From contig JBGANV010000004.1 of assembly GCA_044222185.1 (NCBI GenBank), positions 352,001 to 416,000 on the forward strand: a stretch of 64,000 nt of DNA, read 5' to 3'. Numbering within the stretch: position 1 is the first letter of the stretch; each line of letters opens with the position of its first letter. This document shows, piece after piece, positions 355 through 18,647 of this stretch. This stretch comes from Planctomycetota bacterium. GTDB taxonomy: Bacteria > Planctomycetota > GCA-002687715 > CAIWVZ01. The position numbers and the translations under genes are program-made. The notes beneath the pieces were generated by a model. The model saw nothing but the letters and a program-made list of their open reading frames with translations, did no database searches and was not told the DNA's origin.

Positions 355-364
355 GGTTCGATCC

Positions 365-2284: not shown

Positions 2285-2481
2285 CGCGCGCTGCCGGGAC
2301 CTCCGCACCCCCCGTCCAATCGAGGGTGTGGATCTCCCGCCACGACAGGAGGCGGACGTCTCCGCGCCGGCCGGACGTCTCGCCGCCGTACACGACGACT
2401 CGTTCGCGGATCGTCGGCGTGCGCACATCGCCGATGAGCACGGATTCGAGGCCGGCGCACTGGTCGAGGCTTCGCGTGCAA

Positions 2482-2502
2482 ATTGTCAATCGGATTGACA
2501 AT
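2482..2502. promoter_or_regulatory. Perfect AT-rich inverted repeat ATTGTCAAT-CGG-ATTGACAAT (operator-like; contains TTGACA)
   Basis: 9-3-9 palindrome read directly from the sequence in a GC-rich intergenic region. Confidence 0.5.
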
Positions 2503-2647
2503 CTGTACAGGCAAGCCGAAGTGCCTCGTCTTGCGTCGCTTCCTGCCCGGGGAACGAAGGTGTCGGAGCGAGGGACGTCCGCGGGCAGATCCCGGGACAT
2601 CCGACTGGCACGCGTGGAGAGCCGGTCCTCATTGGACGGCCGACCGG

Positions 2648-2776
2648 ATCTCCGTGCAGCTCCAGGTTCCCCCGGGACTCGGCGGTCTGACCTTCCGAGT
2701 CCAGGGATTCGCGAGGTTGGCCTTCGCAGCGAACGGAGTCTTCGCCACGAGCAACGCGCTCGACGTCACGTTCTGA
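2648..2776 (+). pseudogene. Orphan remnant of a secreted-protein C-terminal domain
   Basis: ISVQLQVPPGLGGLTFRVQG...FATSNALDVTF* resembles the C-terminal regions of 365..2284 and 53292..55331. Upstream part of the ORF looks non-coding and has no signal peptide. Confidence 0.5.
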
Positions 2777-2785
2777 ACGAGCGCG

Positions 2786-3049
2786 TCACCCGCCGCTGAG
2801 CGCTCCGAGGATGTGCACCACGTCGTCCGCGCCGACCTTCGTCGTCAGCGCGCGGACGGCCTTCTTGCCGATGAACACGGCGATGTGGGGGCGCACGCGG
2901 TCCTGCTCGTCGACGATGCGGAAGCGGATCCCCGGGTGGCGGCGGTCCAGATCCTCGAACAGCGCCGCGAGCGTCGCGCCCTTGGCATCTACGTCGGACG
3001 CACCATCGGCGTACGACGTGAGGATGCTGCCGAGGTGGACTTGCGTCAT
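2786..3049 (-). CDS. MoaD/ThiS-family ubiquitin-like protein
   Basis: 87 aa, ends LSGG; overlaps the upstream gene (ATGA). Confidence 0.9.
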   Translation of the reverse strand: MTQVHLGSILTSYADGASDVDAKGATLAALFEDLDRRHPGIRFRIVDEQDRVRPHIAVFIGKKAVRALTTKVGADDVVHILGALSGG

Positions 3050-4179
3050 GAGATCTGCGCCCAGCGGAGCCCGTAGATGTGCGGGAGCGACGCGAACGCC
3101 CGGTTCCAGTTCTCGCCCCCATCCCGGCTTTCCCAGATCTCACCGCCGGTCGTGCCGAAGTAGATCCCGGGCTTCTTGCGGTCGCCGTCGCAAACCATGG
3201 CCTGGCGTTTGACGGTGAAGTACGCGTGCTCTCGCGGCAGGCCGCGGTCGAGCCGCTCCCACGTGCGACCAGCGTCCTGCGTGCGATAGATCGCCGGCTT
3301 GGCGTCGATCGGCGTCCGCGGCCAGAGCGACGTCCCGTTCATGGGGAACACCCAGACGGTGTCGCGGTCCGCGGGATGGCCGACGACCACGAATCCGATG
3401 TCGCCGATCGCCTTCGGCATATTCTTGCCGATGCGCACCCAGGTGTCTCCGTCCTTGCGATCGAGGCGATAGATGCCGCAGTGATTCTGCTGGTAGAGGC
3501 GGTCCGGGTCGGCGGGATGCAGGATCGCGCAGTGCGGGTCGTGCCCATACTCGTCCGGCGGACCCGGCTTGAAGTCCATGGCGACGCCACGATTCATCGG
3601 CTTCCACGTCTTGCCGGCGTCGAGGCTCTCGAACGTGCCGCCGGACGAGGTCGACACGTAGAGGTGCTTGGAATCCTTCGGGTGGACGAGGATCGAGTGG
3701 AGCATGGATCCGTCGGGCGTTCCGGAGTCGCCTCCGCCGGTCCACGCGAGCCATTTGGGGTTGCCGTTGAAGCCCTCGACGCCGCTCCACGTCGCGCCGC
3801 CGTCCCGCGAGTGGAAGAGAGCGGGCGGGCTCGTGCCGCAATACCACGAGCCCGGCTGATCCGCCGGGCCGGGCTCGAGCCAGAAGTTCATCTTCACGGC
3901 TTGCCCGCGAGAGGTCCCCTTCGCCGCGCCGGCCTTTTTCTCGAACTGCGGCGGGCGCTTCGCCTCGGTCCACGTCTTCCCGAGGTTCTTCGAGCGGAAG
4001 ATCGTGGGTCCCAGGTGACCGCCCGTGGAGGTCAGGAGGAGCGTACGACCGTCGCGCGGATCCACGCGGAAGTCGTGGACTTTCGAGCCCAGGTGGAACG
4101 GTCCGTGGATCTTCCACGCGCGGCTCCCGCGTTCGAGCAGGAAGCCGCCCTTGATCGTCGAGACGAGCAACGCCTTCAT
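3046..4179 (-). CDS. BNR/Asp-box repeat beta-propeller protein
   Basis: Repeated S.D.G.TW Asp-boxes, HDPH and YQQNHCG motifs; RBS AGGAG; no signal peptide. Confidence 0.88.
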   Translation of the reverse strand: MKALLVSTIKGGFLLERGSRAWKIHGPFHLGSKVHDFRVDPRDGRTLLLTSTGGHLGPTIFRSKNLGKTWTEAKRPPQFEKKAGAAKGTSRGQAVKMNFWLEPGPADQPGSWYCGTSPPALFHSRDGGATWSGVEGFNGNPKWLAWTGGGDSGTPDGSMLHSILVHPKDSKHLYVSTSSGGTFESLDAGKTWKPMNRGVAMDFKPGPPDEYGHDPHCAILHPADPDRLYQQNHCGIYRLDRKDGDTWVRIGKNMPKAIGDIGFVVVGHPADRDTVWVFPMNGTSLWPRTPIDAKPAIYRTQDAGRTWERLDRGLPREHAYFTVKRQAMVCDGDRKKPGIYFGTTGGEIWESRDGGENWNRAFASLPHIYGLRWAQIS

Positions 4180-4252
4180 GAGGTCTCCTATTCGTTCGGG
4201 CCGAGGTGCCGGGACCTGCCCGCGAGGGGCGCATCATGCCCAATATCCTCCC

Positions 4253-4629
4253 GGCGCGCCAAGCGTCGCTTCGCCGTGAACACGCACTCGCATCTCGTCC
4301 CGTCGTGGATTCCGTCCGAGTTGCGCGTGATGAGGCTGAGCTCGCGCCGAGTCGCCAGCGAGCCCCGCGGCGGGCTGGAGCCCGCCGATCCAGCCGCGGT
4401 GGACCGCGGCGTTCCGGAGCGCCAAGCTTTGCTTGGCCGGATGGGCAGGCTCTGCCTGCCCGCGAGCTCGCTGCCGCATTCCGTGCTGCGTCTCTGCCAG
4501 CACGCGGCATCGGCGACGACGCTGAGCCCACCCGGTTCGCCGCGGGTCGCATCGCGGATCAGCGGCCCGATGCGGACTCCGCGGCGGGCTGGAGCCCGCC
4601 GATCCAGCCGCGGTGGAGGGCGGCGTTCC
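4253..4629. repeat. Two tandem REP-doublet/MITE-like elements (4253-4415, 4416-4629)
   Basis: Each starts GG(A/C)GCGCCAAGC..GCTT(G/C)GC and ends GCGGCGGGCTGGAGCCCGCCGATCCAGCCGCGGTGGA..GCGGCGTTCC. Related copies at 8887 and 36337. Confidence 0.75.
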
Positions 4630-4668
4630 ACCTCGAAAACCGCCCCGGCACGCCTCACAATCCGCGCC

Positions 4669-5382
4669 ATGCCTCCCGAGTCCCGGACCGCCATCACGTC
4701 GACGCTTCGCGAGCTGCCGCACTTCCGGTTGCTGAAGCGCGACATGCTCGACGCCGTCGCGGCCGCGTGCAACCTGCGCGTCTACGAAACTCCCCAGCCC
4801 GTCTTCTTCGAGAAGGATCCGTGCCGGTCGTTCTGGGTCGTGCGCGCGGGGGGCGTGAAGCTCTTTCGACTGCGACCGGACGGCCGCGAGCAGGTCATCA
4901 ACCACCTTCACTCAGGCCAGAGCTTCGCGGAGGCGGCGCTCCTGAACATCGGCGTCTATCCCGTGAACGCCATGACGACGGAGCCGCCGACGGAGTTGAT
5001 CGAGATCTCGGGCGAGCACCTGCGCCGGCTGATGCGCGAGAACGACGGGATGGCCGCTGCGATGGTCGGATCGCTGTCGATGAAGCTCCTCGACCTCGTT
5101 CAGCGGATCGACGAGCTCTCGGCATCGAACGCGGCGACCCGCCTCGCGCGGCACTTCTTGCGGTTGCCGGGCGCGGGCCCATCAGACCGTCCCACGATCG
5201 AGCTCTCGGTGACGAAGAAGGACCTGGCCGCGAGCCTCTCGATCACACCGGAGACGCTCTCCCGCATCCTGCGCAAGTGGCAGGACGACGGGCTCATCGA
5301 GAGCAACGGCCGCAGCATCACGATTCTCGACGCGGCGCAGCTGATGCAGCTTTCGGACGGCGAGGACGGGACGCCGGTTTGA
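4669..5382 (+). CDS. Crp/Fnr-family transcriptional regulator (DNR/HcpR-like)
   Basis: cNMP-like domain (G.VKL, DGREQ, FAE) and HTH TPETLSR; no N-terminal FNR Cys cluster. Real start lies inside the longer ORF 3079..5382. Confidence 0.9.
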   Translation: MPPESRTAITSTLRELPHFRLLKRDMLDAVAAACNLRVYETPQPVFFEKDPCRSFWVVRAGGVKLFRLRPDGREQVINHLHSGQSFAEAALLNIGVYPVNAMTTEPPTELIEISGEHLRRLMRENDGMAAAMVGSLSMKLLDLVQRIDELSASNAATRLARHFLRLPGAGPSDRPTIELSVTKKDLAASLSITPETLSRILRKWQDDGLIESNGRSITILDAAQLMQLSDGEDGTPV

Positions 5383-5731
5383 CGGGCGGCGGCGCGCGCA
5401 CGCCCGCGAGCTTGCGTTGCGCCTGATCCAGCGCCCGGGTGCACATGAGATCGCACAGCCGCCGCACGACGTCGTCTCCGATGGCGCAGACGATGCTCGT
5501 GCCGTCGCGGCGCCGCGTCACGAACCCGACGGCCGCGAGCACGGCGACGTGCTTGCTCGCGTTGGCCTGGCTCGTGCCCAGGTGATCCGCCAGCTCACCG
5601 ACGGTCGCGTCCCCCTGCATCAACCGTTGGAGGATTCGCAGCCGCGCCGGCTCCGACAGCGCGCGGAACTGGCCGGCGACGTCGTCGAACAACGCATCGG
5701 ACATGGCGGGGGGGGAGTGCTGGCGGCTCAT
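5318..5731 (-). CDS. ArsR/SmtB-family transcriptional regulator
   Basis: FRALSEPARLRIL...VGELA...SQANASKH..L...G.V.RRRDG; C-terminal LCDLMC. Confidence 0.9.
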   Translation of the reverse strand: MSRQHSPPAMSDALFDDVAGQFRALSEPARLRILQRLMQGDATVGELADHLGTSQANASKHVAVLAAVGFVTRRRDGTSIVCAIGDDVVRRLCDLMCTRALDQAQRKLAGVRAPPPVKPASRPRRPKAASAAPRRES

Positions 5732-5747
5732 GAAGGCTCCGTGTTCG

Positions 5748-7187
5748 TCAATTGTCCACGCCGGTGGCGACGGGCAGTTCGGGCTTCGCCGCCCATTCCT
5801 TCCACGAGCCGTCGTACCACCGCACGTTCGTGTGTCCGAGCAGGAAGCGCAACGTGAAGTACGTCTCGCTCGCCTGATGACCCGTGCGGCAGGAGACGAT
5901 CGCCGTCTTCTCCGGCGTCAGTCCAAGCGCCTCGTATCCCGCGCGCAGTTGCTCCTTCGGCCGCCAGAACAGGCCGTCGCCCACCCTCGCCAAATCCGCT
6001 GCGACCGGCCGATTGCGCGCGCCCGGAATGTGGCCGCCGCGCGGCTCGTTCACCGTTGCGCCGGAGAACTGGTCCTGCGGACGGCTGTCGATGATCAATG
6101 CACTCCCCGTCGTGCTCGCCGCCTTCACGTCGTCGAGCGAGGCCTTGACGAAGTTCGTCGCCGCGCGCGGCGTGTAGACCTTCGCCTTTGGAGTCGTCGC
6201 GTCCTTGACGACGGCGCCTCCAGCTCCCGTCCACGCGGCGAGGCCGCCTTCGAGGATCGCGACCTTCTCGTGGCCCAGACTCAGGAGCGCCAGCGCGAAG
6301 TGCGTCGCGTCCTGCATCTTCTCCGTGGAGTAGGCGACGACTTCCGTGTCGGCGTCGATCCCGAGCGCCCCGAGCTTCAGCGCGAGCGCCGCGGGATCGA
6401 GGAGTTCGTCGGCGACGCCGTCTCGCGTTCCGCGCACGAGGCTGATGGGAGCGTGGACGGCTCCGGCGATGTGACCGGCAGCGAAGTCCTCCGCCTTGTC
6501 GCGCGTGTCGACGACCACGACTTGCCCGCTGCGTTTCGCCACCCATTCAGCCGAGACGATGGTCGGTGTGGTCAGCCGTTCGGGATCCGTCGCATAGCGC
6601 TGAATCGTCGGCTGCGAGGTGGCCTGTGGTTTCGGCGCCTCCTGTGGACCGAGGATCGCCGCGCGCAACGCCGCGAATCGCGGCAGCGCGGCGGCGGCGT
6701 CCGCCTCGTTGGTGATGCCGCGCAGCGACGGCGGAGTCAGCTCGTCGCGTTTGAATCCCGCGAGGCCGTCCTCGAGCACGCGCACGTCGCGCCGCCCGCG
6801 TTGCGCGAGCGCGACCCACGCCTGTGCCGGGTGCGTCATGCCTTCGGAGACGAGCACGACGAGCGATCCGTGGAATCCCGCGAGCAACGCCCGTCCCTCA
6901 TCGCCGAGCAGCGCCGGAAGATCCAGGTTGTGCGATCGCGGGAGATGGAACGCTGCGAAGTCCGCCGCGGGCCGCACGTCGACGACGAGCACGTCGTCTT
7001 GGTTCGCGAGCCATCGGTCGGCAAGTTCGCGCGTCGAGATGTGATCGGCGCCGGTCTCGACGTCACGGGCCCACGAGAGGTCGGCGACGTTCGGCGACCC
7101 CGGGTGCCAGCGCACGAGGAGCGCGACCGCGACGGTCAACGCCGTGGCACCGAGGGCCGCCAGTTGCGTCTTGAGAGAGATGAGCAT
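5748..7187 (-). CDS. Membrane-anchored multi-domain rhodanese/sulfurtransferase
   Basis: N-terminal hydrophobic segment, three rhodanese domains (FHLPRS, GHIAGA, GHIPGA), active-site loop CRTGHQA, YDGSWKEW signature. Confidence 0.9.
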   Translation of the reverse strand: MLISLKTQLAALGATALTVAVALLVRWHPGSPNVADLSWARDVETGADHISTRELADRWLANQDDVLVVDVRPAADFAAFHLPRSHNLDLPALLGDEGRALLAGFHGSLVVLVSEGMTHPAQAWVALAQRGRRDVRVLEDGLAGFKRDELTPPSLRGITNEADAAAALPRFAALRAAILGPQEAPKPQATSQPTIQRYATDPERLTTPTIVSAEWVAKRSGQVVVVDTRDKAEDFAAGHIAGAVHAPISLVRGTRDGVADELLDPAALALKLGALGIDADTEVVAYSTEKMQDATHFALALLSLGHEKVAILEGGLAAWTGAGGAVVKDATTPKAKVYTPRAATNFVKASLDDVKAASTTGSALIIDSRPQDQFSGATVNEPRGGHIPGARNRPVAADLARVGDGLFWRPKEQLRAGYEALGLTPEKTAIVSCRTGHQASETYFTLRFLLGHTNVRWYDGSWKEWAAKPELPVATGVDN

Positions 7188-7202
7188 GGAACGATCTCCT
7201 GT

Positions 7203-7775
7203 TCAGTCGGCGGTCCGGACGGTGAGCCGGCCCGTGATCGAGAAAGCGATGAGCGCCAGGGCGACGACCCCGGCGACGACGGCGGTGGGCGCGAGCCCGA
7301 ACACCTGGGGGAGGGTGAGAACGCCGCAGGCGCCGGCGGATGCGAACGATCCGATGGCAGGCCAGGCGGCGGCGAACGCCAGGCTCCCGGCCCCGGCGCC
7401 GAGCAGGAACGCGAGCGCGTCGACCTTGCCCGATGCGGCGCCGACGAGCGCGGTTCCCGGACACCAGCCGCCGGTGACGAATCCGACGCCGAACACGAGC
7501 CCGCCGACGATCTGCGGCCAGAGGAACGTCTCGAGGCGCGTCACGCGATCGTCCGGGACGAGGCCCGTGAGCGAGAGCACGTGCATGCCGACGGCCGCGG
7601 TCACGATGGCGGAGAACATCACCTTCAGCACGGCGAAATCGCGGCGGTAGAAGATCGCCGTGAGCTTGCGGCTCGAGCCGAAGCCCGCGCGCTCGAGCCA
7701 GAAGCCGAAGAAGATGCCGACGACGAGCGCCAGGCCGCGGGCCGAGTCCGTCGCGAGGAAATCGCCGCCGTTCAT
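7203..7775 (-). CDS. YeeE/YedE-family sulfur-compound transporter subunit
   Basis: GIFFGFWLERAGF, FG.GF..GGWCPGT; ATG at 7775 overlaps the upstream stop. Confidence 0.88.
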   Translation of the reverse strand: MNGGDFLATDSARGLALVVGIFFGFWLERAGFGSSRKLTAIFYRRDFAVLKVMFSAIVTAAVGMHVLSLTGLVPDDRVTRLETFLWPQIVGGLVFGVGFVTGGWCPGTALVGAASGKVDALAFLLGAGAGSLAFAAAWPAIGSFASAGACGVLTLPQVFGLAPTAVVAGVVALALIAFSITGRLTVRTAD

Positions 7776-8329
7776 GACCACTCCTTCCTCACGAGCGGTG
7801 CCGCGGCGAACCCGCCGGCGAACACCGCGAACATGAACGCCCAACTGCCCGCGAGGAGGAGCGACCCGCCGGTCAATGCCTGGCCCGACGTGCATCCACC
7901 CGCGAGTCGGCTCGCAAAGCCCACGATGCCGCCGCCGATCACGGCGAGGGCGAGGCGGCGAAGACGCGATGCCGTGGGACCCGCTTCGATCGCAGGCCGC
8001 ACGCGCCGAGCCGCGAGGGCCGAGATGAATCCACCGAGGATCGTGCCCAGCGCCATGAACACGAGGTAGTGCGAGAGCGGGGATCCACCGGACGCGAACC
8101 ACTCCGACAGATACCCGTTCTGCTCGACGAGCTGCGGCGACGCCGCATGCGCTCCGACGGCCGCGACGCGCGCGAGACCGCCGGAGGCGCCCAGCCCCGC
8201 GCCGAGGACGACGAAGGAGAGGACCAGCGTCAAGCCGATGCCGATCCCGGCGAGGTAGGGGTTCCAGTACGTCACCGGTGCCGGTCGGCTCGGCGGCGTG
8301 ATGCGGAGTTCTGAGTCGGTTCCGTGCAT
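7772..8329 (-). CDS. YeeE/YedE-family sulfur-compound transporter subunit
   Basis: YWNPYLAG, GLGASG, RLAGGCTSGQAL; RBS AAGGAG. Confidence 0.88.
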   Translation of the reverse strand: MHGTDSELRITPPSRPAPVTYWNPYLAGIGIGLTLVLSFVVLGAGLGASGGLARVAAVGAHAASPQLVEQNGYLSEWFASGGSPLSHYLVFMALGTILGGFISALAARRVRPAIEAGPTASRLRRLALAVIGGGIVGFASRLAGGCTSGQALTGGSLLLAGSWAFMFAVFAGGFAAAPLVRKEWS

Positions 8330-8341
8330 CGTGCGTCTCCT

Positions 8342-8815
8342 TCAGCAGCCCGAGCTTCGAGGTTTCACCGGCTGCGATGCGGTCGCGGCTTTGGATGACG
8401 GCCGTGTGTCGGCGGGAGTGGACCGCAGTTCGATCTCGTTCCACCACCGCAGCGTGCCTCCGGCGAGGACGCGCACGTCTTGGGTGCCGGCTTGCGCGGT
8501 CGCGAGCGCCGCGCCCGCAACGGCCCACGCCGCCGTGCCATCGCGATCGACGACCACGACCTTGGCTCCCGCGCCGGCCGCGGCGATGGATGTGGCCACG
8601 TCGCCGGGAGCGAGGTTCTTCGCGCCGGGAATGTGGAATTCCGCGAACTGCCACGCCGGGCGGATGTCGAGGACGAGCCAGCCCGAAGCCTTGGATTTGA
8701 GTTCGTTCCACAACGCCGTCGGCTCGATGGCTGGCGGAATCCCCGACGTGGACGTGGCGAAGAGCCCGAGCGAAGTTGCCGTCACGAACGAAGCGAGAGC
8801 CCAGCGCAACTGCAT
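8342..8815 (-). CDS. Exported single-domain rhodanese-like protein with C-terminal Cys tail
   Basis: Signal peptide, LDIRP..F..FHIPGA, VVVDRDG loop (no Cys), ends PRSSGC. Confidence 0.8.
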   Translation of the reverse strand: MQLRWALASFVTATSLGLFATSTSGIPPAIEPTALWNELKSKASGWLVLDIRPAWQFAEFHIPGAKNLAPGDVATSIAAAGAGAKVVVVDRDGTAAWAVAGAALATAQAGTQDVRVLAGGTLRWWNEIELRSTPADTRPSSKAATASQPVKPRSSGC

Positions 8816-8852
8816 GATCGTCTCCTGTGGGTCGGGTGTGCCGTCGAAGGTT

Positions 8853-8878
8853 ACTAAATAACTAAGTAGTTAAATAGT
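8853..8878. promoter_or_regulatory. Imperfect 12-2-12 inverted repeat, probable ArsR-family operator of the sulfur operon
   Basis: ACTAAATAACTA-AG-TAGTTAAATAGT, strongly AT-rich, ~40 bp upstream of the 8815 start; 12-2-12 geometry is typical of ArsR/SmtB operators. Confidence 0.7.
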
Positions 8879-8886
8879 CGCCAATC

Positions 8887-9079
8887 GGAGCGCCAGGCTC
8901 CGCCTGGCCGGACCGGGCAGGCTCCAGCCTGCCCGAGAACTCGCCGCGTGCGAAAGTTCCGCCCACAACGACGCCGCCGGACGTCGCGTGCCGATCGACG
9001 GGCTGCGAACGCGCGATCGTGGCGAACTCCGCGGCGGGCTGGAGCCCGCCGATCCGGCCGCGCTGGAGCGCGGCGTTCC
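8887..9079. repeat. REP-doublet/MITE-like element
   Basis: GGAGCGCCAGGCTCCGCCTGGC...GCCGCGCTGGAGCGCGGCGTTCC; same ends as 4416-4629 with a different interior. Confidence 0.75.
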
Positions 9080-9166
9080 TGGTCTTTAGATGGCGCGACC
9101 GATCGCCTATCCTGCCCGCCTCGAAACCACTTCGGCGCCGCCGTTTCGCGGTGCCGGGAGGCCGCC

Positions 9167-9217
9167 ATGCGATTCCGTGTGACTCACACCATCGCGACGA
9201 GCCTCGGGCGCGACTGA
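9167..9217 (+). CDS. Putative 16-aa leader peptide (MRFRVTHTIATSLGRD)
   Basis: GGAGG RBS just before the ATG; ends ~90 nt upstream of the rbfA-like gene. Confidence 0.45.
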   Translation: MRFRVTHTIATSLGRD

Positions 9218-9304
9218 TCGACATCCGCCGCACCGGGCTCTCGCCGTTCTTGGGCGAAATTCCAAGTCTCTGACGCGCTGATCGCGTCCCCGGAGAGAGT
9301 CCAC

Positions 9305-9709
9305 GTGAATCGAAAGTCCCGATGGGGGAAGGATCCGTCCCCCGGGCCCGACGACGGGCCGTCCCAGGATCCGCTCGTATCCAAGTTCTTCCATCCCGCG
9401 CCGAAGGCCGCCTTCGAGCGCAAGGCTCGCCAGCTTTGCGAGGAAGTCCGTCGCACCCTGGAGTTCGCGCTCGATTGGGAGTGTGACGACGACCTGCTCG
9501 CCGAGCTTTGGATCGCCGCCGTCGATCCGGCCCCCGACGCCTCACGCTTGCGCGTGTCGATCGAGATTCCGCCCGGCCGCGATCCCGTGGCCGTGCTCGA
9601 ACGCCTCGATCGCATGCGGCCGCGTCTGCGGGCGGAGGTCGCGAGAGCCGTGACGCGCAAGCGCGCGCCCGACTTCTTCTTCGCCGTGGGAAGCGGAGGT
9701 GACGCATGA
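9305..9709 (+). CDS. RbfA-like (ribosome-binding factor A paralogue) KH-II protein
   Basis: D..L.EL.I..V.PAPDASRLRV and RLRAEVARAVTRKRAP.F.F parallel RbfA motifs; N-terminal extension PGPDDG; GTG start with RBS GGAGAG. Confidence 0.75.
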   Translation: MNRKSRWGKDPSPGPDDGPSQDPLVSKFFHPAPKAAFERKARQLCEEVRRTLEFALDWECDDDLLAELWIAAVDPAPDASRLRVSIEIPPGRDPVAVLERLDRMRPRLRAEVARAVTRKRAPDFFFAVGSGGDA

Positions 9710-10848
9710 CTGCGCCGCACGGAGCGAACGTGCGCGTGTGGGCGGCTCATCGCCTCGCAGCGGACGTGCGCGGCATGATCGACCGCGTCGCCGCGTCGGC
9801 AGACGTCGTTCACGTCGCGGTGATGCCCGACGTCCACCTCGCCGAGGAGGTGTGCGTCGGGTGCGTCGTCGCCACCACGAACACGCTGTACCCGCAGGCC
9901 GTCGGCGGCGACATCGGGTGCGGCATGGCGGCGATGGCGCTCGAGGCGTCCGCCGACGACGTCGACGAGGTCCGCGCCGCGCGGATCCTCGACCGATGGG
10001 GCGCCGAGATCCCCGCGATCCGGCGTGCTCGCGCGAATCACGTCGCCATCCCCGACTCCGTGCTCGCGATGCCGCTCAGTCGTAGTGGCCTCGAGACGTG
10101 CCGAGACCGCGACGGCACCGTCGAGTTCGCCACGCTCGGGCGCGGGAACCACTTCATCGAGTTGCAGGCGGGCGACGACGATCGGCTCTGGCTGATGGTT
10201 CACAGTGGCTCACGGGCGATCGGGCCCGAGGTCCGCAATCATCACCTCTGGATCGCGCGCGCCGCAGGTGCGGCGGCGTACCTCGCAGGGCTCGGTGCGG
10301 ACCGCGACGACGGCCGTGACTATCTGGCCGACGTAGCCTTCGCCATCGCCTACGCGGAGGCGAGCCGGCGAGCCATGCTCGCGCGCGCCGCCGCGAGCGT
10401 CGCGGACGTCCTGCGATGCGCGATCGACGAGGCCTCGGTGATCACCTGCGTCCACAACTCCGTGCGGCGCGAGGTCCACGACGGACGCGCGTCGTGGGTG
10501 CATCGCAAGGGCGCTGCGCCCGCGGCCCACGGCGAGCCGGGCATCATCCCGGGATCCATGGGCGCCGAGAGCTTTCACGTCGTCGGACGTGGATGCTCGG
10601 CTGCGCTCGCCTCCAGTTCGCACGGAGCGGGCCGCGTGATGGCACGCGGCGACGCTCGCCGTCTCATCTCGCGTCGGCGACTCGAGCGCGAGATGGAGGG
10701 CGTGTGGTTCGACCATCGCCTCGCCGCGCGTCTCGTGGATGAAGCGCCCTCGGCCTACAAGGACATCGGCGAAGTGATGCGCGCACAGGCCGACCTCGTG
10801 CGCATCGAGCGGCGGCTGCGACCGCTCATCAGCTACAAGGGCGCGTGA
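9706..10848 (+). CDS. rtcB: RtcB-family RNA ligase (2',3'-cyclic/3'-phosphate to 5'-OH)
   Basis: MPDVH, GGDIGCG, TLGRGNHFIE, HSGSR, HN, HRKGA, PGSMG, SSSHGAGR, EAPSAYK and terminal KG all present. Confidence 0.95.
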   Translation: MTAPHGANVRVWAAHRLAADVRGMIDRVAASADVVHVAVMPDVHLAEEVCVGCVVATTNTLYPQAVGGDIGCGMAAMALEASADDVDEVRAARILDRWGAEIPAIRRARANHVAIPDSVLAMPLSRSGLETCRDRDGTVEFATLGRGNHFIELQAGDDDRLWLMVHSGSRAIGPEVRNHHLWIARAAGAAAYLAGLGADRDDGRDYLADVAFAIAYAEASRRAMLARAAASVADVLRCAIDEASVITCVHNSVRREVHDGRASWVHRKGAAPAAHGEPGIIPGSMGAESFHVVGRGCSAALASSSHGAGRVMARGDARRLISRRRLEREMEGVWFDHRLAARLVDEAPSAYKDIGEVMRAQADLVRIERRLRPLISYKGA

Positions 10849-10907
10849 CGGGCCGTTGCTCCCCGATCGCCGCAGGCAGGTCGCGGCCCCGCAACGACTT
10901 GCGCCGT

Positions 10908-10925
10908 CCTTGACATCCGTCAAGG
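10908..10925. promoter_or_regulatory. FNR/DNR-type box upstream of qNor
   Basis: CCTTGAC-ATCC-GTCAAGG, perfect TTGA-N6-TCAA palindrome ~80 bp before the start. Confidence 0.8.
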
Positions 10926-11004
10926 AGCGGCGCGCCGCGCTTTCCGATGATCCTGCCGAACGCCGCGCGCGCTCGTGCCAGCGGCCTGGAAAGCGAGGTT
11001 CGTC

Positions 11005-13359
11005 ATGTCGGTGCTGTCGAAGTTCACGATCGGGCGAGTCCTGGTCTTCACGGTGGTCGTCGGGTTCTCGGTGCTGCTCTTCGGTGGGTGGCAGCTCTTC
11101 CGCAACCGGGCGCCGATCCCGGGCCGGGTCACGAGCGAAGCCGGCGAGGTCGTGTTCACCCACGATCAGATCCTGGGCGGCCAGGCCGTCTACCAGAAGT
11201 ACGGACTCATGGACTGGGGCTCGGTCCTCGGACACGGCACGTACTTCGGGCCGGACTTCACCGCCGAACTCCTCCACAAGCGCGTGGAGCTCCTGCGCGC
11301 GGCCGAGGCGACGGCGCGCGGCGGCAAGGCCTACTCTGATCTGGATGCGAGCGCGCGTGCGGCCATCGACGCCGCCGTGAAGGCGCAGATCAAGCTCAAC
11401 CGCTACGACGAAGCTCGTGACACGCTTATCCTCGCACCGAGCGACGTGACCGCGTTCCGCACGATCGAGGCGGACGTCCGGCGCCGCTTCACGCAAGGCG
11501 AACCGGGTCGCGCCATGCCCGCGGGAGTGGTGAGCGAATCCCACATGCCCGCCGAGCGCGCGTGGGTCGCGAGCGGTGATCAGATCCACCAGCTCGCCTC
11601 GTTCTTCTGGTGGACGTCGTGGATCGCGGGCACGAAGCGCCCCGACCGTGACTCCACCTACACGAACAACTGGCCTTTCGACGAGGACGCGGGCAACACG
11701 CTCTCGGCCGGCGCCATCACGTGGAGCGGAGTCTCGGTGGCGGGCTTGCTCCTCCTCCTGCCCATCGTCCTGCTCGTGTGGTTCCGTGGCCGCTACATGA
11801 TGGAGGACGCGTATCCGGAAGGGCAGTTCCCGCGGCAGGAACTCTCGTGGCTGCCGGTCTTCCCGAGCCAGCGCAAGACGATCAAGTACTTCGTGACCGC
11901 GGGCGCGCTCTTCCTCGTGCAGACGCTGCTCGGCGCCTACATGGCGCACTACTACGTGGAGGATGGTTTCTACGGCGTCGACCTCTCGAGCATCCTGCCG
12001 TTCAACGTGGCGAAGACGTGGCACCTCCAGCTCGCCATCTTCTGGATCGCGACGGCCTGGCTCGGCATGGGCATCTACGTGGCGCCGCTGATCGGCGGCC
12101 GCGAGCCGAAGAAGCAGGGACTCCTCGTCGATCTGCTCTATGGCGCGCTCGTGTTCGTCGCCGTGGGCTCGCTCGCCGGTGAGTGGCTCGGCGTGAAGGG
12201 CCGCCTCGGCAATGCGTGGTGGTGGCTTGGACACTCGGGTTGGGAACTCGTGGAGCTGGGCAAGGTGTGGCAGATCCTCCTCGCCGTCGGCTTCGGCCTG
12301 TGGCTCGCGATCATCTGGCGCGGCGTCCGCGCGGCGATCCAGGGCAACAACGACCGGCCGGGCCTGGTCAAGCTGTTCATGGTGAGCGCCGTCGCGATCC
12401 CGTCCATGTTCGCGGCGAGCTTCCTCATCACGCCGGGCAGCCACCTGACCATGGCGGACTACTGGCGTTGGTGGGTGATCCACCTGTGGGTCGAAGGCAT
12501 GTTCGAAGTGTTCGCCGTCGTCGCCCTGGGGCTCATCATGGTCCACATGGGACTCGTCACCGCATCGTCGACCGCGCGTGCGCTCAAGTTCCAGCTCACG
12601 CTGCTCCTCGGCAGCGGGATCGTCGGCATCGGACACCACTACTACTGGATCGGAACGAACGACTTCTGGGTCGCCATGGGAAGCGTGTTCAGCGCCCTCG
12701 AGGTGGTGCCGCTGACGCTGCTCGCCGTGGAGGCGGCCGAACAGTGGATGGTGATCAAGCGCGGCGGGCGTGAGTTCCCGTACAAGCACGCGTTCGGGTT
12801 CCTCGTCGCCGTGGCGTTCTGGAATCTCTTCGGCGCCGGCGTGCTCGGGTTCTTCATCAACCTGCCCGTCGTCAACTACTTCGAGCACGGATCGATGCTG
12901 ACGGCCAATCACGGCCACGGCGCGACGATGGGCGTCTTCGGCATGCTGGCGATCGCGCTCGCGCTGTGGTGCTCGCGCAACGTCGTGAAGGAGGATCGCT
13001 GGACGAACCGGCTGTTCACCACGAGCCTGTGGGGCCTCAACATCGGCCTCTTCGGCATGGTGGTGATGACGCTCACGCCGGTCGGCGTGATGCAGATGCT
13101 CGAGTCGATCCGCCACGGGTTCTGGTCGGCGCGCACGCTGGAGTTCTACCGGCAGGACACCGTGAACACGCTCTTGTGGCTGCGCATGATCCCCGACTCG
13201 ATCTTCATCGGCTTCGGCGTGATCCCGCTCCTGATCGGGCTCGTGCGCGGGCTCCTGAACCTCCGCCCCGCGACGCCCATCGAGTCCGAGATCGATCGCC
13301 GCGTGCGGCGCATCGGCGTGACCGAACCCGAAGTCGAGCTCGTCGGCCAGACTCGCTGA
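11005..13359 (+). CDS. norZ: Quinol-dependent nitric oxide reductase (qNor)
   Basis: GSVLGHGTYFGPDFTA, YTNNWP, TWHLQL, WWVIHLWVEGMFEVF, GIGHHYY, HGH, LRMIPD; RBS GAGG before ATG 11005. Confidence 0.95.
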   Translation: MSVLSKFTIGRVLVFTVVVGFSVLLFGGWQLFRNRAPIPGRVTSEAGEVVFTHDQILGGQAVYQKYGLMDWGSVLGHGTYFGPDFTAELLHKRVELLRAAEATARGGKAYSDLDASARAAIDAAVKAQIKLNRYDEARDTLILAPSDVTAFRTIEADVRRRFTQGEPGRAMPAGVVSESHMPAERAWVASGDQIHQLASFFWWTSWIAGTKRPDRDSTYTNNWPFDEDAGNTLSAGAITWSGVSVAGLLLLLPIVLLVWFRGRYMMEDAYPEGQFPRQELSWLPVFPSQRKTIKYFVTAGALFLVQTLLGAYMAHYYVEDGFYGVDLSSILPFNVAKTWHLQLAIFWIATAWLGMGIYVAPLIGGREPKKQGLLVDLLYGALVFVAVGSLAGEWLGVKGRLGNAWWWLGHSGWELVELGKVWQILLAVGFGLWLAIIWRGVRAAIQGNNDRPGLVKLFMVSAVAIPSMFAASFLITPGSHLTMADYWRWWVIHLWVEGMFEVFAVVALGLIMVHMGLVTASSTARALKFQLTLLLGSGIVGIGHHYYWIGTNDFWVAMGSVFSALEVVPLTLLAVEAAEQWMVIKRGGREFPYKHAFGFLVAVAFWNLFGAGVLGFFINLPVVNYFEHGSMLTANHGHGATMGVFGMLAIALALWCSRNVVKEDRWTNRLFTTSLWGLNIGLFGMVVMTLTPVGVMQMLESIRHGFWSARTLEFYRQDTVNTLLWLRMIPDSIFIGFGVIPLLIGLVRGLLNLRPATPIESEIDRRVRRIGVTEPEVELVGQTR

Positions 13360-13374
13360 CGGACGCGCCGCGCG

Positions 13375-15633
13375 TCAGCGCTTGCGACTCTCCGCGCCTT
13401 GCGTGTCGCCACGCAGGGCGCGGTTCACTTGGGCGAGCAGCTCATCGGCGCGAGACACGGGCTCGAAGCAGAGCGTGTCGATGCAGACGGTGGCGCGGAC
13501 GCGGTCGGTGGGGACATCGTCCCGCGTCAACACGACGTGGGGTGAGTAGCCGACCGTGATCGGGGCCCGCAGCAATCGCGCGACGGCGATGGGGCCCCCG
13601 AGTGCCACGCGCGCCACGGGCCGGGCCACGAGGTCCCAGGCGATGAGGCCGTACGTGGAATCCACGGGTGACTTCGCCACGTCGACCGACACGGCGTCGA
13701 GCGCGCGACGGGCCGCATCGAGATCCGCCGGCTCGCCGCTGATGCGCGCCAGCCGGGCGAGGGCCACGTTCATCTGCGAGATCCCCGAAGGCCATGCTCC
13801 GTCGTGGACTTCGCGCGTGCGGAAGATGAGGTCGGGCTCGACCGAGTCGAAGAACCCGCCGTCCGACGCGCCGAACCGTGCCCGCGTCGCCGTCGTGAGG
13901 CTTCGCGCTCGCTCGAGCCAGCCCGGATCGAGCGTGAGTTCGTGGAGGTCGAGGAACGCCTCGATCATCGCCGCCTGATCACTCAGCTCGCCCGCGGGGC
14001 TGGCATCGCCGACCGAGAGCCGACGCGCGTAGAGACCGTCCGACCGCAGCGATTTCGACGTCAGCACGCGGACGATCTCGACGGCCGCGTCGCGATAGCG
14101 GACGTCGTTCAGTGCAAGCGACGCGCGCGCGAGCGCGGACGCGAACCATGCGTTCCACCCCGTGATCACGTGATCGACCCGCGCCGGTTGCGGGCGCACG
14201 CGTCGGGCCGCGAGGAGCTTCCCGCGGGCTTCGCGGAGCGCGCTCTCGACGGCGTCGAGCCCGAGGCCCAGGGTCTTCGCGACTTCGGCGGGCGCTCGGC
14301 GCTCCGCGATCGTCTCCTCACCCGATCCCGCGGGCGGGCGATCGAACCCGGCCCAGCTCGTGAACGCCGCGAGTTCGGTGCCCGACAAGACGGCCGCGAC
14401 CTGCTCGCGCGTCCACAAGTACGTTGCGCCCTCGACTCCGTCCGTCGTCGCGTCGAACGCCGCGATGAATCCACCACTGGCCGCGCGCATGTCGCGCAGG
14501 GTGAAATCCAGCACCTCGCGCGCCAGGGATGTGTACGTTTCGTCGCCAGTCGCCTGCGACAGCTCGATCAGGACGCGGGCGTTCAGCGCCTGGTCGTAGA
14601 GCATCTTCTCGAAATGCGGCACCTGCCAGGCGCGGTCGGTCGAATAGCGGTGAAAGCCGCCGGCCAGATGATCGCGGATGCCTCCGCGCGCCATGGCGTC
14701 GTATTGGTGCCGGACGGCGTCGAGTGGGGCGCTCACGTCGCGAGATCTGGCCCACTGACGCAACAGGAGGAGCGACAGGGTCGGCGACGGGAACTTGGGG
14801 GCGAGTCCGAACCCGCCCTTTTCGTCCTCGAGATCCTTCAGGCGATCGGCCGCGACGCGCATGGGGTCGGAGGGCCGCGACGTCGTCTCCCTGCGCTCGC
14901 CCCAGACCCCCAGGACTTCCAGTGCGCGGCGCTGTTCTGGATCGAGCTGGTCGAGCGGACGCGACGGCTTGCTTGCGGCCGCGCCCGGCACGGCCTTGGC
15001 GCGGGCGTCGAGCTCATCGAACGGGAGGTTGGCGAGCGTCATCACGCGCGCCAGCCCGTCGGCTGCGTCGGTCAACGTCTGCCGCTTTTCCTTCCACGCT
15101 TCTGCGACTGAATGGACGAGCGTGCGGAAGCCGCGTTGGTTCGGTCCGTCATCGGGCGGGAAATAGGTCCCCGCAAAGAACGGCTTGCGGTCCGGTGTCA
15201 GGAAGAGGTTCAGCGGCCAGCCGCCCTCGCCGATGGCGCGCACGGCCGCTTGCATGTAGACGCGGTCGACGTCGGGGCGCTCCTCGCGATCGACCTTGAT
15301 CGAGACGAACGACGCGTTCAGCTCGGCGGCGATCGCAACGTCCTCGAACGACTCCCGCTCCATCACGTGGCACCAATGGCAGGACGCGTACCCGATGGAG
15401 AGGAAGATCGGCTTCTGCTCGCGGACGGCACGGGCGAAGGCCTCTTCGCCCCACGGGTACCAGTTCACCGGGTTGTGACCGTGCTGGCGAAGGTAAGGGC
15501 TCGCTTCCTTCGCGAGACGGTTCTCGTAGGCCGGCCGGGTCGATGTCGGGGTCGACTCCTGCGCTGCGCCGATCGTCGCGAGGGCGATCGAAACGATCGC
15601 AACCAGACTGCGCCGCTCAACTCCGCGGCGCAA
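13375..15633 (-). CDS. YyaL/SSP411 (DUF255) thioredoxin-domain protein, exported
   Basis: [42 protein letters not shown]; signal-like N-terminus. Confidence 0.92.
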
Positions 15634-16168
15634 TGAACGCCTCGCGGTAGTACCGAAGCTCGGCGACGGACTCGCGAATGTCAGCCAGGGCGTCGTGCAG
15701 GTTCTTCTTCGGCGGCGGCGAGTACTTGTCCGGGTACCAGCGCTTCAACACTTCCTTGAACGAGCTCACGTCCACGTTGCGGTAGTGGACGAAGTCGTGG
15801 AGCTTCCGCATGCCGTGCCAGAGGAAGATGCGGTCGTTCCAGATGGAGTTGCCGCAGAGCGGCGCGTTCTGGGGAAGCACGTGCTGCTTCAGGAACTCCA
15901 GCGTGAGGCGCTCGGCGTCGGCGCGCGAGGTGGTGGACTGGCGGACCCGGTCTATCAACCCCGACTTCGTGAACGTGTCGCGCGACCAGTCGGAGAGCGT
16001 CAACAGCTCGTCCTCCGTCGCGTGGCAGACGAAGCTCGGGCCTTCGGCGACCAGTTCCAACTCGCCGGTGGTGACGATCGTGGCGATTTCGATGATCTGG
16101 CAGCGCGTGGGATCGAGTCCGGTCATCTCCAGATCGACCCAGACGAGTCTGTCGGCATTCGCGGGCAT
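15617..16168 (-). CDS. orn: Oligoribonuclease
   Basis: [39 protein letters not shown]; RBS GGAGG before ATG 16168. Confidence 0.95.
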
Positions 16169-16235
16169 GGAGCCTCCGTCCGTGAGACGGAGCATAGACG
16201 CATGCCAGTCCACCCGAAAGGCGGAGACGGTCGGG

Positions 16236-17480
16236 CTACTTCGAGAGGACCCACTCCCGCCAGCCTGCCTCGAGCGTCACGAGGTCGACGTTCCAGGTGT
16301 CTCGCACGGCGAGCGAAAGTGCCTTCGTCCGCGAGGATCTCGGGAGCGATGAAGCCAGTTCGTCGACGAAGAGCGCGAACTTCGCCGGGTCGAGCGCGAT
16401 CAGATAGCGCACGAGGCTCGCGGCTTCGGCCCTTGGGAGCGGACCGATGGCGCGGATCGGCATGAGGCTGAGGGCCGCGATCGATGCCCCCTTGCCCGCA
16501 TTCACCCGCTCGAACGCCGCCTTCGTCGCGTCGACGAGCGGTTCCTGTCCCGGCCTGAACGTCGAAGGCTCCAGCGCGAACGCGCGGAGGTCCCGAGCCT
16601 GGATCACGTCCGCGAGTCCCACCTCGAGCCATGGGGGCAGCACCGAGTCCTCCGAGCCAGCCAGCCCTCGCATGAGCTGGAGCGCGGCGCTCCAGTCGAA
16701 CCGACGGCGCTGCGCGGCGGTGTCGTCCTCCGAAAGCGTCAACGTCGCCATCGGTCCGTGATCGAAAAGCCCGCCGCCGAGCGCCCAAGTGTCGGGCGGG
16801 AGTCCCTGCCCGGCGAACGCGGCGGCGGCCACGTCCGTCGAGAAGAGAAATAGTTGGGCGCTCAGCGGCGTGCGAATGCTGTCGGTGCGGAGCGGGTCGG
16901 CGGCCCAGCCGCGCCCGTTCGCGTCGAGGAGTGCCGCGAGGGCGGCCTCGACTTGCAAGAGACGTTCAGCCCAGACGTGCGCGACCTGATGGGCGGTCAG
17001 CGCAGTGCACTGGGGTGGGAAACCCGGAAACACCACCCGAAGGCGTTCCACTTCGGCTTGCGTGAGGTCCGTGACCTTCGCCTTCGGAACGCAGACGACG
17101 AGACTCGCGTGATGCGTGTCGATCACGATCGGGTCCACGCCGGAGATCGCCTTGAGCCACGGCATCACGCTTCGAGGGTCGCGTCCCAGGATCTGCCGCG
17201 TGGTCCACGCGGTCTGCTGCGGCCGGGCGGCCTGCTGCCTCGCCTGGATGCAGGTCCGACAGGCGCTCGCGAGTGCGACGTACGGTTCCGTGGGGCCATG
17301 CCGCGACGGCGGCGGAGGCGCATTGACCCACGACATGCCCGTGGCGGCAGTCTGCGGCCTGACGCGGAGCGAGTCAGGCACTGCCACGGACGCGGTCGTC
17401 GTCCCGTGTTGCGCGTGGGCCGCTCCCTGGAGCACGAGGCCCATGATGATTGCGCACAGACTGAGTTTCAGACGAGTCAT
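16236..17480 (-). CDS. Hypothetical exported protein
   Basis: Signal peptide MTRLKL...AHA; LPPWLEVGLA resembles a degenerate gluzincin-type segment. Confidence 0.65.
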   Translation of the reverse strand: MTRLKLSLCAIIMGLVLQGAAHAQHGTTTASVAVPDSLRVRPQTAATGMSWVNAPPPPSRHGPTEPYVALASACRTCIQARQQAARPQQTAWTTRQILGRDPRSVMPWLKAISGVDPIVIDTHHASLVVCVPKAKVTDLTQAEVERLRVVFPGFPPQCTALTAHQVAHVWAERLLQVEAALAALLDANGRGWAADPLRTDSIRTPLSAQLFLFSTDVAAAAFAGQGLPPDTWALGGGLFDHGPMATLTLSEDDTAAQRRRFDWSAALQLMRGLAGSEDSVLPPWLEVGLADVIQARDLRAFALEPSTFRPGQEPLVDATKAAFERVNAGKGASIAALSLMPIRAIGPLPRAEAASLVRYLIALDPAKFALFVDELASSLPRSSRTKALSLAVRDTWNVDLVTLEAGWREWVLSK

Positions 17481-17675
17481 GGAATTCGATCGAGGAAGCA
17501 GCCTTGCCACCCCAAGTCGCCGCGCGGTTCCGACATCGTCGACCGACGACGGTCGCGCGGCGATACGTGCAATCCTCCCGACCGGCGCCGGCCCTTCCTG
17601 TCCATTGCCCTGGAGTTCAGATGTGCCTGAAATCACCTGCGCAACGCCGGCCGAAGAGGACCTCACGGTTTTCGA

Positions 17676-18647
17676 TCACTTCGTAGCGGGCATTCGGAGA
17701 GCGGCGATCGAGTTGTCGCAGGCATCCCCGCGAACCTTCAACTTGCCGAGTTCCTCGACGATGTCCTCACGCTCGTGGCCGCAGTCCGGGCACACGACTC
17801 CGCCTTCGATCTGCTTCGCGCGATGGTCGACGTAGGCCTTCGACTTCAGGAGCGCGTCCATCTGCGGAGCCTTCTCCGCCAGATTGACCTTCATCTCCTT
17901 CCCGTACGCGATCTCGAGCGTGTCGTAGGCGCCGTTGAACTTCCGCTGGCCTGCGATCTGGGCCATCTCGGCGCCGTCGCGTCCGAAGACGTAGAGGCGC
18001 GCGTCACCGGCCTTCGTTCCGGTCGCATCGACCTTGAAGCAGTTGAAGAAGTTCGCGGCCGTCTTGAAGCGCGAGTCGCTCTCGAGTGCCGAGAGGAGCC
18101 GCTTGTGGTCCGCGTTGCCGGAATCGAAGACGATGACGATCGACGGGCGATCGTCACGCGCCCAGCCGCCCTGGGCCTGCGGCAGTTTCACGCCGTCCGC
18201 GATCGTACCGACGGACGAGCCGTACCCCTCGCGTTGCACGACTGGGAGGAACACGCTCTTCCACGGGATCGTGACCTTCTCGTCCCACATGGACAGCATG
18301 CCCTTGGACTTGCCCGGCGTCGCCATTCCGCCCGTCGTGCGGCCTGCGGCCCCATGCGGAGCGGCCGCCGTCGCGCCCGGAGTGAAAGTCGTTGGCGCAC
18401 CCGTGGTGCCGCCAGTGGCATTTCCACCGCCGGTCGTCGTGCCCGTGACCGCGCCACCCGTGGGGCCATTGAACTCGGGAGTCGGGGCCCCGCCGACGGG
18501 CGTCTGAGTCGGGTTTCCGCCACCCATGGCCGGCGGCGGCGGTGGTGGCGGTGGCGGCGGCGACCAGCCGTGAGCCAGAACCGGGGCTGCGATGACGGCT
18601 GCAACCAGCAGCCGGCGCAGAGTGGTCGAGAACGTGTCGGGTGTCAT
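17676..18647 (-). CDS. Hypothetical exported protein with poly-Pro and Gly/Thr-rich linker
   Basis: RBS AAGGAG, signal peptide, run of ten Pro, possible thioredoxin-like core, CPDCGH near the C-terminus. Confidence 0.75.
   Translation of the reverse strand: MTPDTFSTTLRRLLVAAVIAAPVLAHGWSPPPPPPPPPPAMGGGNPTQTPVGGAPTPEFNGPTGGAVTGTTTGGGNATGGTTGAPTTFTPGATAAAPHGAAGRTTGGMATPGKSKGMLSMWDEKVTIPWKSVFLPVVQREGYGSSVGTIADGVKLPQAQGGWARDDRPSIVIVFDSGNADHKRLLSALESDSRFKTAANFFNCFKVDATGTKAGDARLYVFGRDGAEMAQIAGQRKFNGAYDTLEIAYGKEMKVNLAEKAPQMDALLKSKAYVDHRAKQIEGGVVCPDCGHEREDIVEELGKLKVRGDACDNSIAALRMPATK

Follow-up and report, generated by a model that had tools for sequence, protein, structure and literature searches.

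An RbfA paralogue coupled to an RtcB RNA ligase across several bacterial phyla looks like an undescribed RNA-repair pair, possibly directed at the ribosome

We analysed a gene pair on a 64,000-nucleotide stretch of DNA from a Planctomycetota bacterium (GenBank assembly GCA_044222185.1, contig JBGANV010000004.1, positions 352,001 to 416,000), hereafter referred to as the window. In this pair, a gene for a protein resembling ribosome-binding factor A (RbfA) lies directly upstream of a gene for a short RNA ligase of the RtcB family. The original prediction, made from the sequence alone, described two genes overlapping by ATGA, and both open reading frames (ORFs) were found, at 9305–9709 and 9706–10848. 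The pair has the following features, including the predicted K homology (KH) core of the first protein.

9292..9299, + strand: Shine-Dalgarno-like GGAGAGAG, read from the sequence, 5 nt 5' of the GTG start of the RbfA-like gene
9305..9709, + strand: RbfA-like paralogue gene, an ORF of 134 amino acids with a GTG start and a TGA stop
9305..9403, + strand: N-terminal extension of the RbfA-like protein, residues 1–33, a basic disordered start followed by a short DP..FF helix
9404..9688, + strand: predicted KH type II (RbfA-fold) core, residues 34–128, with a helix, two strands, a long helix and a strand
9695..9699, + strand: GGAGG, putative ribosome-binding site for rtcB, read from the sequence, inside the 3' end of the RbfA-like gene and 6 nt before the RtcB start
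9706..9709, + strand: ATGA start/stop overlap, in which the ATG at 9706–9708 and the TGA at 9707–9709 use the same letters
9706..10848, + strand: gene for a short RtcB RNA ligase of the RbfA-linked clade, an ORF of 380 amino acids with an ATG start

The GTG start of the RbfA-like gene is supported because its closest homologue, P0002 (69% identical), opens with the same MNR residues. The junction between the two genes was spanned without insertion or deletion by contigs from another study's runs (X3, record 9469–10034; X4, record 9697–10184).

Relatives of the RbfA-like protein were collected by scanning prokaryotes at one genome per species; 159 were detected, and the best 80 were kept. The window protein scored 25.1 bits against the Pfam model RBFA (PF02033) over residues 41–127, under the cut-off of 34.7, and 25.8 bits against the NCBIfam RbfA model NF001802, the cut-off of which is 142. 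Among the 80 homologues, 25 reached the Pfam cut-off, 54 fell below it and one gave no match. By the RbfA family's own criteria, the protein is not a standard member. Nevertheless, the description of the partner as RbfA-like held up at the level of the predicted fold, despite the low Pfam score. A profile built from an alignment of 79 family members (A2) was compared with the PDB sequence set, and only RbfA structures were matched, with coverage of the whole domain: 1jos first (2.4e-5), followed by 2dyj, 1kkg, 7afl, 8bxa and 6ye5. Alignment of the paralogues with 21 canonical planctomycete RbfAs by hhalign gave 96.2% probability and an E-value of 2.7e-9 over positions 3–97 of 104. AlphaFold2 modelling on the A2 alignment predicted the core, approximately residues 34–128, with a predicted local distance difference test (pLDDT) score of 86–94, as helix 34–59, strands 69–75 and 81–87, helix 94–115 and strand 123–128. 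The extension was modelled with a pLDDT below 50 at residues 6–21 and a helix at residues 23–28, corresponding to the DP..FF motif. In a Foldseek search of the PDB with this model, the top 21 matches were all to RbfA of bacteria or mitochondria, led by 2dyj (E-value 7e-6), and the six best bacterial matches had target-normalized TM scores of 0.73–0.83 and root-mean-square deviations of 1.9–3.0 Å. The anticipated KH type II fold was thus recovered by both the AlphaFold2 model and Foldseek. Judged by predicted fold and by descent, the upstream protein appears to be an RbfA with a KH type II fold.

The same family also has signatures of its own. The N-terminal PGPDDG..DP..FF and RKARQLC elements, pointed out previously as an extension, proved to be family signatures: many members carry the motif C..(L/V)H.DDG(V/I)DP(R/K).FF after a basic tail, and the window protein has the variant GPDDGPSQDPLVSKFF (window 9344–9391). 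The median pI of the N-terminal extension is 10.0. At the other end, an R..P.L.F strand motif is common to the paralogue and canonical RbfA. In a phylogenetic tree with few columns and weak deep support, the paralogues formed their own clade against three canonical RbfAs, with a value of 91 in the Shimodaira–Hasegawa-like approximate likelihood ratio test (SH-aLRT). A search with the A2 profile against 1.84 billion cluster representatives yielded 2664 at E ≤ 1e-3, 1736 at E ≤ 1e-10 and 384 at E ≤ 1e-30. Public records label family members ‘ribosome-binding factor A’ or ‘hypothetical protein’, and a protein-atlas look-up of one homologue returned only planctomycete clusters, automatically named RbfA.

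The paralogue status of the window gene was examined in its own genome, an assembly of 7.08 Mb in 16 contigs with 93.8% completeness. A canonical rbfA (92.4 bits) was found on a different contig, just behind an ORF whose translation, judged by eye, resembles the end of IF-2. Because the canonical gene sits elsewhere in the genome, the window gene represents a second, diverged rbfA-like copy. As first noted, it lies outside the usual infB–rbfA context, with sulphur-transfer and NorB-like genes as its flanks. The expectation of a canonical rbfA elsewhere was borne out in the window's genome and in all five other genomes tested, so that both kinds of rbfA were present in 6/6.

The downstream protein is an RtcB, with 260.9 bits against the Pfam model PF01139 (cut-off 27). 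The claim that it keeps all catalytic motifs was confirmed: its motifs align to those of solved RtcBs, and residues D42, H44, D69, C72, N148, H149, H166, H250, K268 and H306 are invariant in 51 RtcBs linked to the paralogue. We take these residues to be the metal ligands and, in the HGAGR motif, the histidine that accepts guanosine monophosphate. The window RtcB fell below the cut-offs of both RtcB2-type NCBIfam models, TIGR03073 (132.4 versus 271.8 bits) and NF007153 (180.6 versus 407 bits). For the linked RtcBs as a set, bit scores are given for the window protein only and the others were judged by E-value; the best E-values among all 51, 4.8e-49 and 1.2e-61, imply scores below both cut-offs. 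A control RtcB adjoining prfH passed both models.

In a tree of 37 RtcBs, all 19 sampled linked ligases fell into one clade (SH-aLRT 92), sister (SH-aLRT 86) to a clade that contains E. coli K-12 RtcB, encoded in rtcBA–rtcR, together with planctomycete and Sorangium relatives. The linked clade is without two insertions found in the E. coli type. The PrfH-adjacent RtcB2 and the long archease-type RtcBs fell outside these two clades, RtcB2 being represented by a single row on a long branch, the exact place of which is uncertain. Another rtcB in the window's genome encodes a ligase of the long type (549.6 bits), and an archease gene (127.9 bits) lies immediately upstream of it (G000 contig C6:40409–42287, loci L092 and L003). 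There are thus two RtcB systems in this genome, and each has a small upstream partner of its own. The archease family (PF01951) gave no match in the upstream protein of the window.

We then surveyed gene neighbourhoods from the side of the RbfA-like gene. Of the 80 genome loci, 50 have an RtcB gene as the next gene downstream, in the same orientation. Contig ends interrupt two of the remaining 30, 11 have RtcA, a GNAT acetyltransferase gene is downstream in three, and the neighbours of the others vary. In an independent scan of metagenome contigs, 80 loci were retrieved, 10 of which were cut, and the 70 informative loci comprised 39 with RtcB, eight with RtcA and 23 with other neighbours. Linkage to rtcB, for which this survey had been suggested, is thus strongly conserved in both collections. 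By phylum, the genome loci were distributed as follows.

Planctomycetota: 59 loci, 33 with RtcB, 11 with RtcA and 15 other
Myxococcota: 17 loci, 14 with RtcB, 0 with RtcA and 3 other
Acidobacteriota: 2 loci, 2 with RtcB, 0 with RtcA and 0 other
Pseudomonadota: 1 locus, 1 with RtcB, 0 with RtcA and 0 other
Phylum unknown: 1 locus, 0 with RtcB, 0 with RtcA and 1 other

Outside Planctomycetota, 17 of the 20 copies accompany RtcB. Two tandem RbfA-like genes with no RtcB near were observed after a SAICAR synthetase gene in a Sandaracinus metagenome-assembled genome (MAG; L084:3854–4899), and the related Sandaracinaceae loci L085 and L086 have one RbfA-like copy.

The linkage was also examined from the side of RtcB, by searching 301 genomes from the window's phylum with the RtcB of the pair as query. 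In all 11 other genomes with a match of at least 320 bits, the paralogue lay directly upstream, and it lay upstream in all five genomes with matches of 231–257 bits, among them G225, in which a SpoU-like gene lies between the two, and G170, in which the paralogue was detected only by a local hidden Markov model. No match at or below 203 bits adjoins a paralogue in this sample. The dependence is asymmetric: the linked RtcB type always occurs with its partner (16/16 other genomes), and the partner often occurs without RtcB. A stand-alone paralogue, with varied neighbours, was present in about 20 of the roughly 37 carrier genomes of the same sample, and in four genomes with a stand-alone paralogue, Pfam found some RtcB in three.

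Two cases of linkage deserve a separate description. In the single case of an intervening gene (L109, G225:C77, 3608–6549), the product has 308 amino acids. Its similarity to SpoU/TrmH-type 2'-O-methyltransferases is limited to their C-terminal part (Pfam, 68 bits), and its NCBIfam RlmB score of 50 bits is below the cut-off. A SpoU-like methyltransferase beside a ligase brings to mind the Hen1 methylase of Pnkp–Hen1 RNA repair. In Sorangium cellulosum So ce56 (G309), five separate RtcB loci were found, and the RbfA-like partner is present only at 5157147–5158196, where the RtcB of the pair is named sce3688.

One explanation for the pair would be chance or an annotation artefact, such that the upstream ORF is not a gene or its position next to rtcB is accidental. 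The Pfam match below the curated cut-off and a GC-rich genome full of spurious ORFs could be taken in its favour; however, the family profile detects 1736 cluster representatives at E ≤ 1e-10, the model folds confidently as RbfA, the linkage was replicated in genomes and in metagenomes, and independent contigs confirm the gene junction. We count this explanation as refuted, and the pairing of the RbfA-like gene with RtcB is not due to chance.

The organization of the junction is conserved as well. Of 53 distinct pairs, 40 have a 4-nt NTGA overlap, three overlap by 8 nt, and most of the others have gaps of 4–17 nt. A Shine-Dalgarno-like 4-mer was present within 20 nt before the RtcB start at 50 of 54 junctions; no 8-mer other than the Shine-Dalgarno sequence was shared upstream. 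Pairwise distances of the two proteins were correlated (r = 0.90 for 51 pairs, with none of 1000 permutations as high), although any co-inherited neighbour genes would correlate to some degree. Terminal groups matched between the paralogue and RtcB trees, and one lineage (f59) was basal in both. RtcB-linked copies were spread through the whole paralogue tree, including the basal branch. Since linked members are scattered in this manner, the RtcB linkage is probably ancestral and was then repeatedly lost. At one MAG locus (L038:3941–5533), a single 531-amino-acid ORF contains both domains, with ATGA kept at the junction but the end of the RbfA-like part read in the frame of RtcB; this may be a natural fusion or a frame error of the MAG. 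A search for further long fused forms found none, which, by the caveat of the method itself, is weak evidence.

The position of the window pair in the two trees was noted separately. Its RbfA-like protein clusters with Myxococcota copies (SH-aLRT 81–87, in comparison with L012, L013 and the Sorangium loci), and its RtcB is closest to that of a Myxococcales MAG (58% identity) but is placed in the RtcB tree with the planctomycete G063. The pair has likely been transferred between Planctomycetota and Myxococcota, in either direction, and the phylogenies indicate that the two genes were inherited jointly and moved between phyla together.

These observations bear on the possibility that the RbfA-like protein is an independent ribosome factor, that is, a stress-specific factor for maturation or silencing of the 30S subunit that only shares expression with RtcB, in a translation-stress operon, and does not target the ligase. 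About one-third of the copies stand alone, linked and unlinked copies have the same conserved core, and public databases name the family ribosome-binding factor A, all of which would fit such a role. The association is nonetheless exclusive from the RtcB side in 16/16 genomes, the start/stop overlap is kept in 40/53 pairs from four phyla, and both genes move between phyla together; such patterns exceed what shared regulation usually gives. We consider an independent factor improbable.

Our preferred reading is that the two genes form a conserved RNA-repair module in which the RbfA-like protein serves as an adaptor for a dedicated RtcB, a proposal that we regard as evenly balanced between right and wrong. 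In this scheme, translation of an RtcB subfamily would be coupled to that of a diverged RbfA paralogue, consisting of a KH type II fold and a basic N-terminal extension, and the RbfA-like protein would be the subunit that recognizes or holds RNA. By descent, its ligand would probably be the small ribosomal subunit or the 3' minor domain of 16S rRNA therein, and RtcB would reseal a break with 2',3'-cyclic-phosphate or 3'-phosphate and 5'-OH ends.

The literature on the small subunit, in the parts drawn on here, gives this scheme its background. The KH surface of canonical RbfA holds G1530–A1536 of 16S rRNA, and A1534–C1535 stack on Phe78 beside the AXG motif (PMC8177701). E. coli RtcB re-ligates the 16S 3' fragment cut by MazF, resealing a break within the 3' minor domain, and reportedly interacts only weakly with ribosomes (PMC5416887). 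RtcB2 together with PrfH repairs 16S rRNA cut at the decoding centre by colicin E3 (PMC9304027, PMC13166195). We favour the ribosome as target because the only known relatives of the fold act on the 16S 3' end, because E. coli RtcB rejoins the MazF-cut 16S 3' fragment, because RtcB2 reaches 16S rRNA cut at the decoding centre via a diverged translation factor, PrfH, and because the stand-alone paralogues suggest an activity of their own that RtcB exploits. That the adaptor is specifically ribosome-directed is nevertheless tentative, and in our estimate falls somewhat short of an even chance. A more particular possibility, which we hold just as guardedly and lean slightly against, is that the RbfA-like family recognizes small subunits after ribotoxins or MazF-type nucleases have made a cut in the 3' minor domain of 16S rRNA. 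It might then hold the damaged subunit, or a 3' fragment that has come loose, and pass it on to RNA-end enzymes, mostly to the dedicated RtcB and, in Isosphaeraceae, to RtcA.

The connection with RtcA was found at 11 of the 80 genome loci, in Isosphaeraceae and in MAGs labelled Planctomycetaceae, where the RtcA gene is convergent to the paralogue (L026, L028, L031, L034, L039, L042, L054, L055, L078, L081 and L090, at about 4300–6800 in each). The neighbouring RtcA is bona fide, with 240.8 bits in Pfam and 342.5 bits against TIGR03399 (cut-off 250). This adjacency constitutes a second, weaker genomic tie to RNA-end chemistry. Following RtcA in the Isosphaeraceae loci is a conserved gene for a protein of 288–333 amino acids that matches no Pfam or NCBIfam model. 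The only RtcB of Singulisphaera acidiphila is of the long type and lies about 5.8 Mb away.

Several results weigh against an adaptor that brings RtcB to the ribosome. The residues by which canonical RbfA grips 16S rRNA are mostly replaced. Canonical planctomycete RbfAs have A-R-G-[F/Y/W], with the aromatic residue in 20/21 and an invariant Gln two positions further; in the paralogues, the glycine position of AXG is G in 52/79 and P in 23/79, the next residue is R or K in 39/79 and aromatic in 19/79, and the invariant Gln has become an invariant Arg. The window protein reads R-P-R at the AXG and aromatic positions, which differs from the canonical motif. The DPR loop of canonical RbfA is also replaced, and the core has a median pI of 6.5, compared with 9.6 for the canonical domain (the window protein, 6.6). 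On the ligase side, the sister group of the linked clade is the E. coli RtcB type; RtcB2, the proven ribosome repairer, branches elsewhere. About one-third of the copies adjoin neither RtcB nor RtcA and have varied neighbours. Genomes with the paralogue carry some RtcB only slightly more often than the sample as a whole (36/37 versus 239/301), which is not informative. RtcA adjoins the paralogue convergently and in one lineage only, so this arrangement could be inherited synteny. Two candidates for a docking site were not supported: the N-terminal motif, considered as an RtcB-docking peptide, is present in every gene context, and residues specific to RtcB-linked copies amounted to nothing beyond K/R swaps, with no RtcB-docking surface visible. 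Lastly, the contact between the two proteins, the RNA ligand and the dependence of ligation on the partner are all inferred.

Part of this evidence would suit a different role, in which the RbfA-like protein is a catalytic helper of RtcB, in guanylylation or turnover, or a chaperone, as in the case of archease, and the substrate is tRNA or another RNA. The genome shows a parallel layout, in which the long RtcB is directly preceded by a small archease gene and the short one by the RbfA-like gene; the linked RtcB clade was never found without its partner; and the 16S-contact residues of RbfA are not kept in a core that is not basic. The sister clade holds E. coli RtcB, which works without archease according to the part of PMC10630183 drawn on here. 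A cofactor role is harder to reconcile with the persistence of the paralogue alone in many genomes lacking an RtcB of the linked clade, with its position beside RtcA, a different enzyme, in another lineage, and with a predicted fold that is an RNA-binding KH, the only known relatives of which are ribosome factors. We regard such a role as unlikely and retain the adaptor as the preferred reading. As to the original prediction of an adaptor that holds or recognizes damaged 30S subunits for RtcB, none of three refuting conditions put to the data (linkage not conserved, a sole rbfA, no KH-II fold) was borne out. The genes and their coupling stand, as do the predicted fold, the standing of the gene as a paralogue and the finding that the RtcB clade occurs exclusively with its partner; the adaptor step is an inference that fits the evidence, qualified by the RNA-contact residues, the clade, the charge and the lone copies.

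Compared with known systems, the closest in layout is RtcB2–PrfH of E. coli ATCC 25922 and other strains, which, in the parts of PMC9304027, PMC9223846 and PMC13166195 drawn on here, likewise consists of two genes, one for a short RtcB and the other for a translation- or ribosome-factor paralogue that has diverged. The single planctomycete example inspected (L161) has a 4-nt overlap between its two genes, as in the window pair. Through PrfH, 16S rRNA with damage at the decoding centre becomes accessible (PMC9304027, PMC13166195). In the window, however, the partner is an RbfA-like KH protein encoded upstream, whereas PrfH is a release-factor homologue encoded downstream, and the window ligase is below both RtcB2 cut-offs and branches with the E. 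coli RtcB type. The genome gave only two PrfH matches, of 114.6 and 96 bits on other contigs (C8 and C1), both under the cut-off of 166.65. Likewise, RtcA (PF01137) and RtcR (PF06956) had zero matches genome-wide in this 93.8% complete assembly, so that the reported lack of rtcA, rtcR and prfH near the pair extends, above cut-off, to the whole genome.

Canonical RbfA (PF02033; 1KKG, 1JOS, 2DYJ and 7AFL) shares the predicted KH type II fold over the whole domain. The paralogue differs from it in being a second copy outside the infB context, with an added N-terminal extension of roughly 35 residues, in being without the DPR loop and mostly without the aromatic residue (Phe78 in E. coli) and the Gln beside AXG, and in having a less basic core. 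The archease–RtcB pair, as the window pair, has a small accessory gene immediately upstream of rtcB, but the accessory protein is of another fold and family, and the RtcB is of the long type in place of the short clade found here. The RtcB clade of E. coli K-12 rtcBA–rtcR is the closest sister of the linked clade; that system is without an RbfA-like partner, and the window's genome is without a detected RtcA or RtcR.

The known kind to which this pair would belong is an RtcB ligase with a recruited accessory factor, and the new element is a diverged RbfA as the partner. Present in several bacterial phyla, the pair looks like an undescribed RNA-repair pair, possibly directed at the ribosome. 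We found no literature linking RtcB with RbfA; the survey of Burroughs and Aravind (2016) and the supplement of PMC9304027 were outside this search, and a prior mention there is possible. The repair targets of most bacterial RtcB ligases are largely unknown, and RtcB2 with PrfH is the best-defined case of ribosome repair. If the proposal is correct, the pair would represent a second, PrfH-independent system of ribosome repair, common in Planctomycetota and Myxococcota, and would supply a testable substrate hypothesis for the linked RtcB clade. At least 1736 sequence clusters now labelled as ordinary RbfA would gain a function as well, and the case would indicate that ribosome-assembly factors can be recruited into repair. 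Cultured carriers include Sorangium cellulosum So ce56 and Singulisphaera acidiphila.

With regard to the surroundings of the pair, no sigma-70-like promoter was detected in window 8700–11200 and no convincing terminator around the pair, and an Rfam search of window 1–20000 gave zero matches. No compositional island was found at the pair, and searches of PADLOC, plasmids, phages and viral contigs gave no match for it. On the upstream side, the pair is flanked by rhodanese and sulphur-transport genes and, on the downstream side, by genes for a NorB-like oxidase and a DUF255 thioredoxin; these genes are unrelated to the pair. The YeeE/YedE-like sulphur-transport protein (window 7203–8329, − strand) is split over two adjacent ORFs that correspond to the two halves of Pfam PF04143. 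These ORFs are bordered by the rhodanese genes, and the arrangement looks like the ordinary two-gene form.

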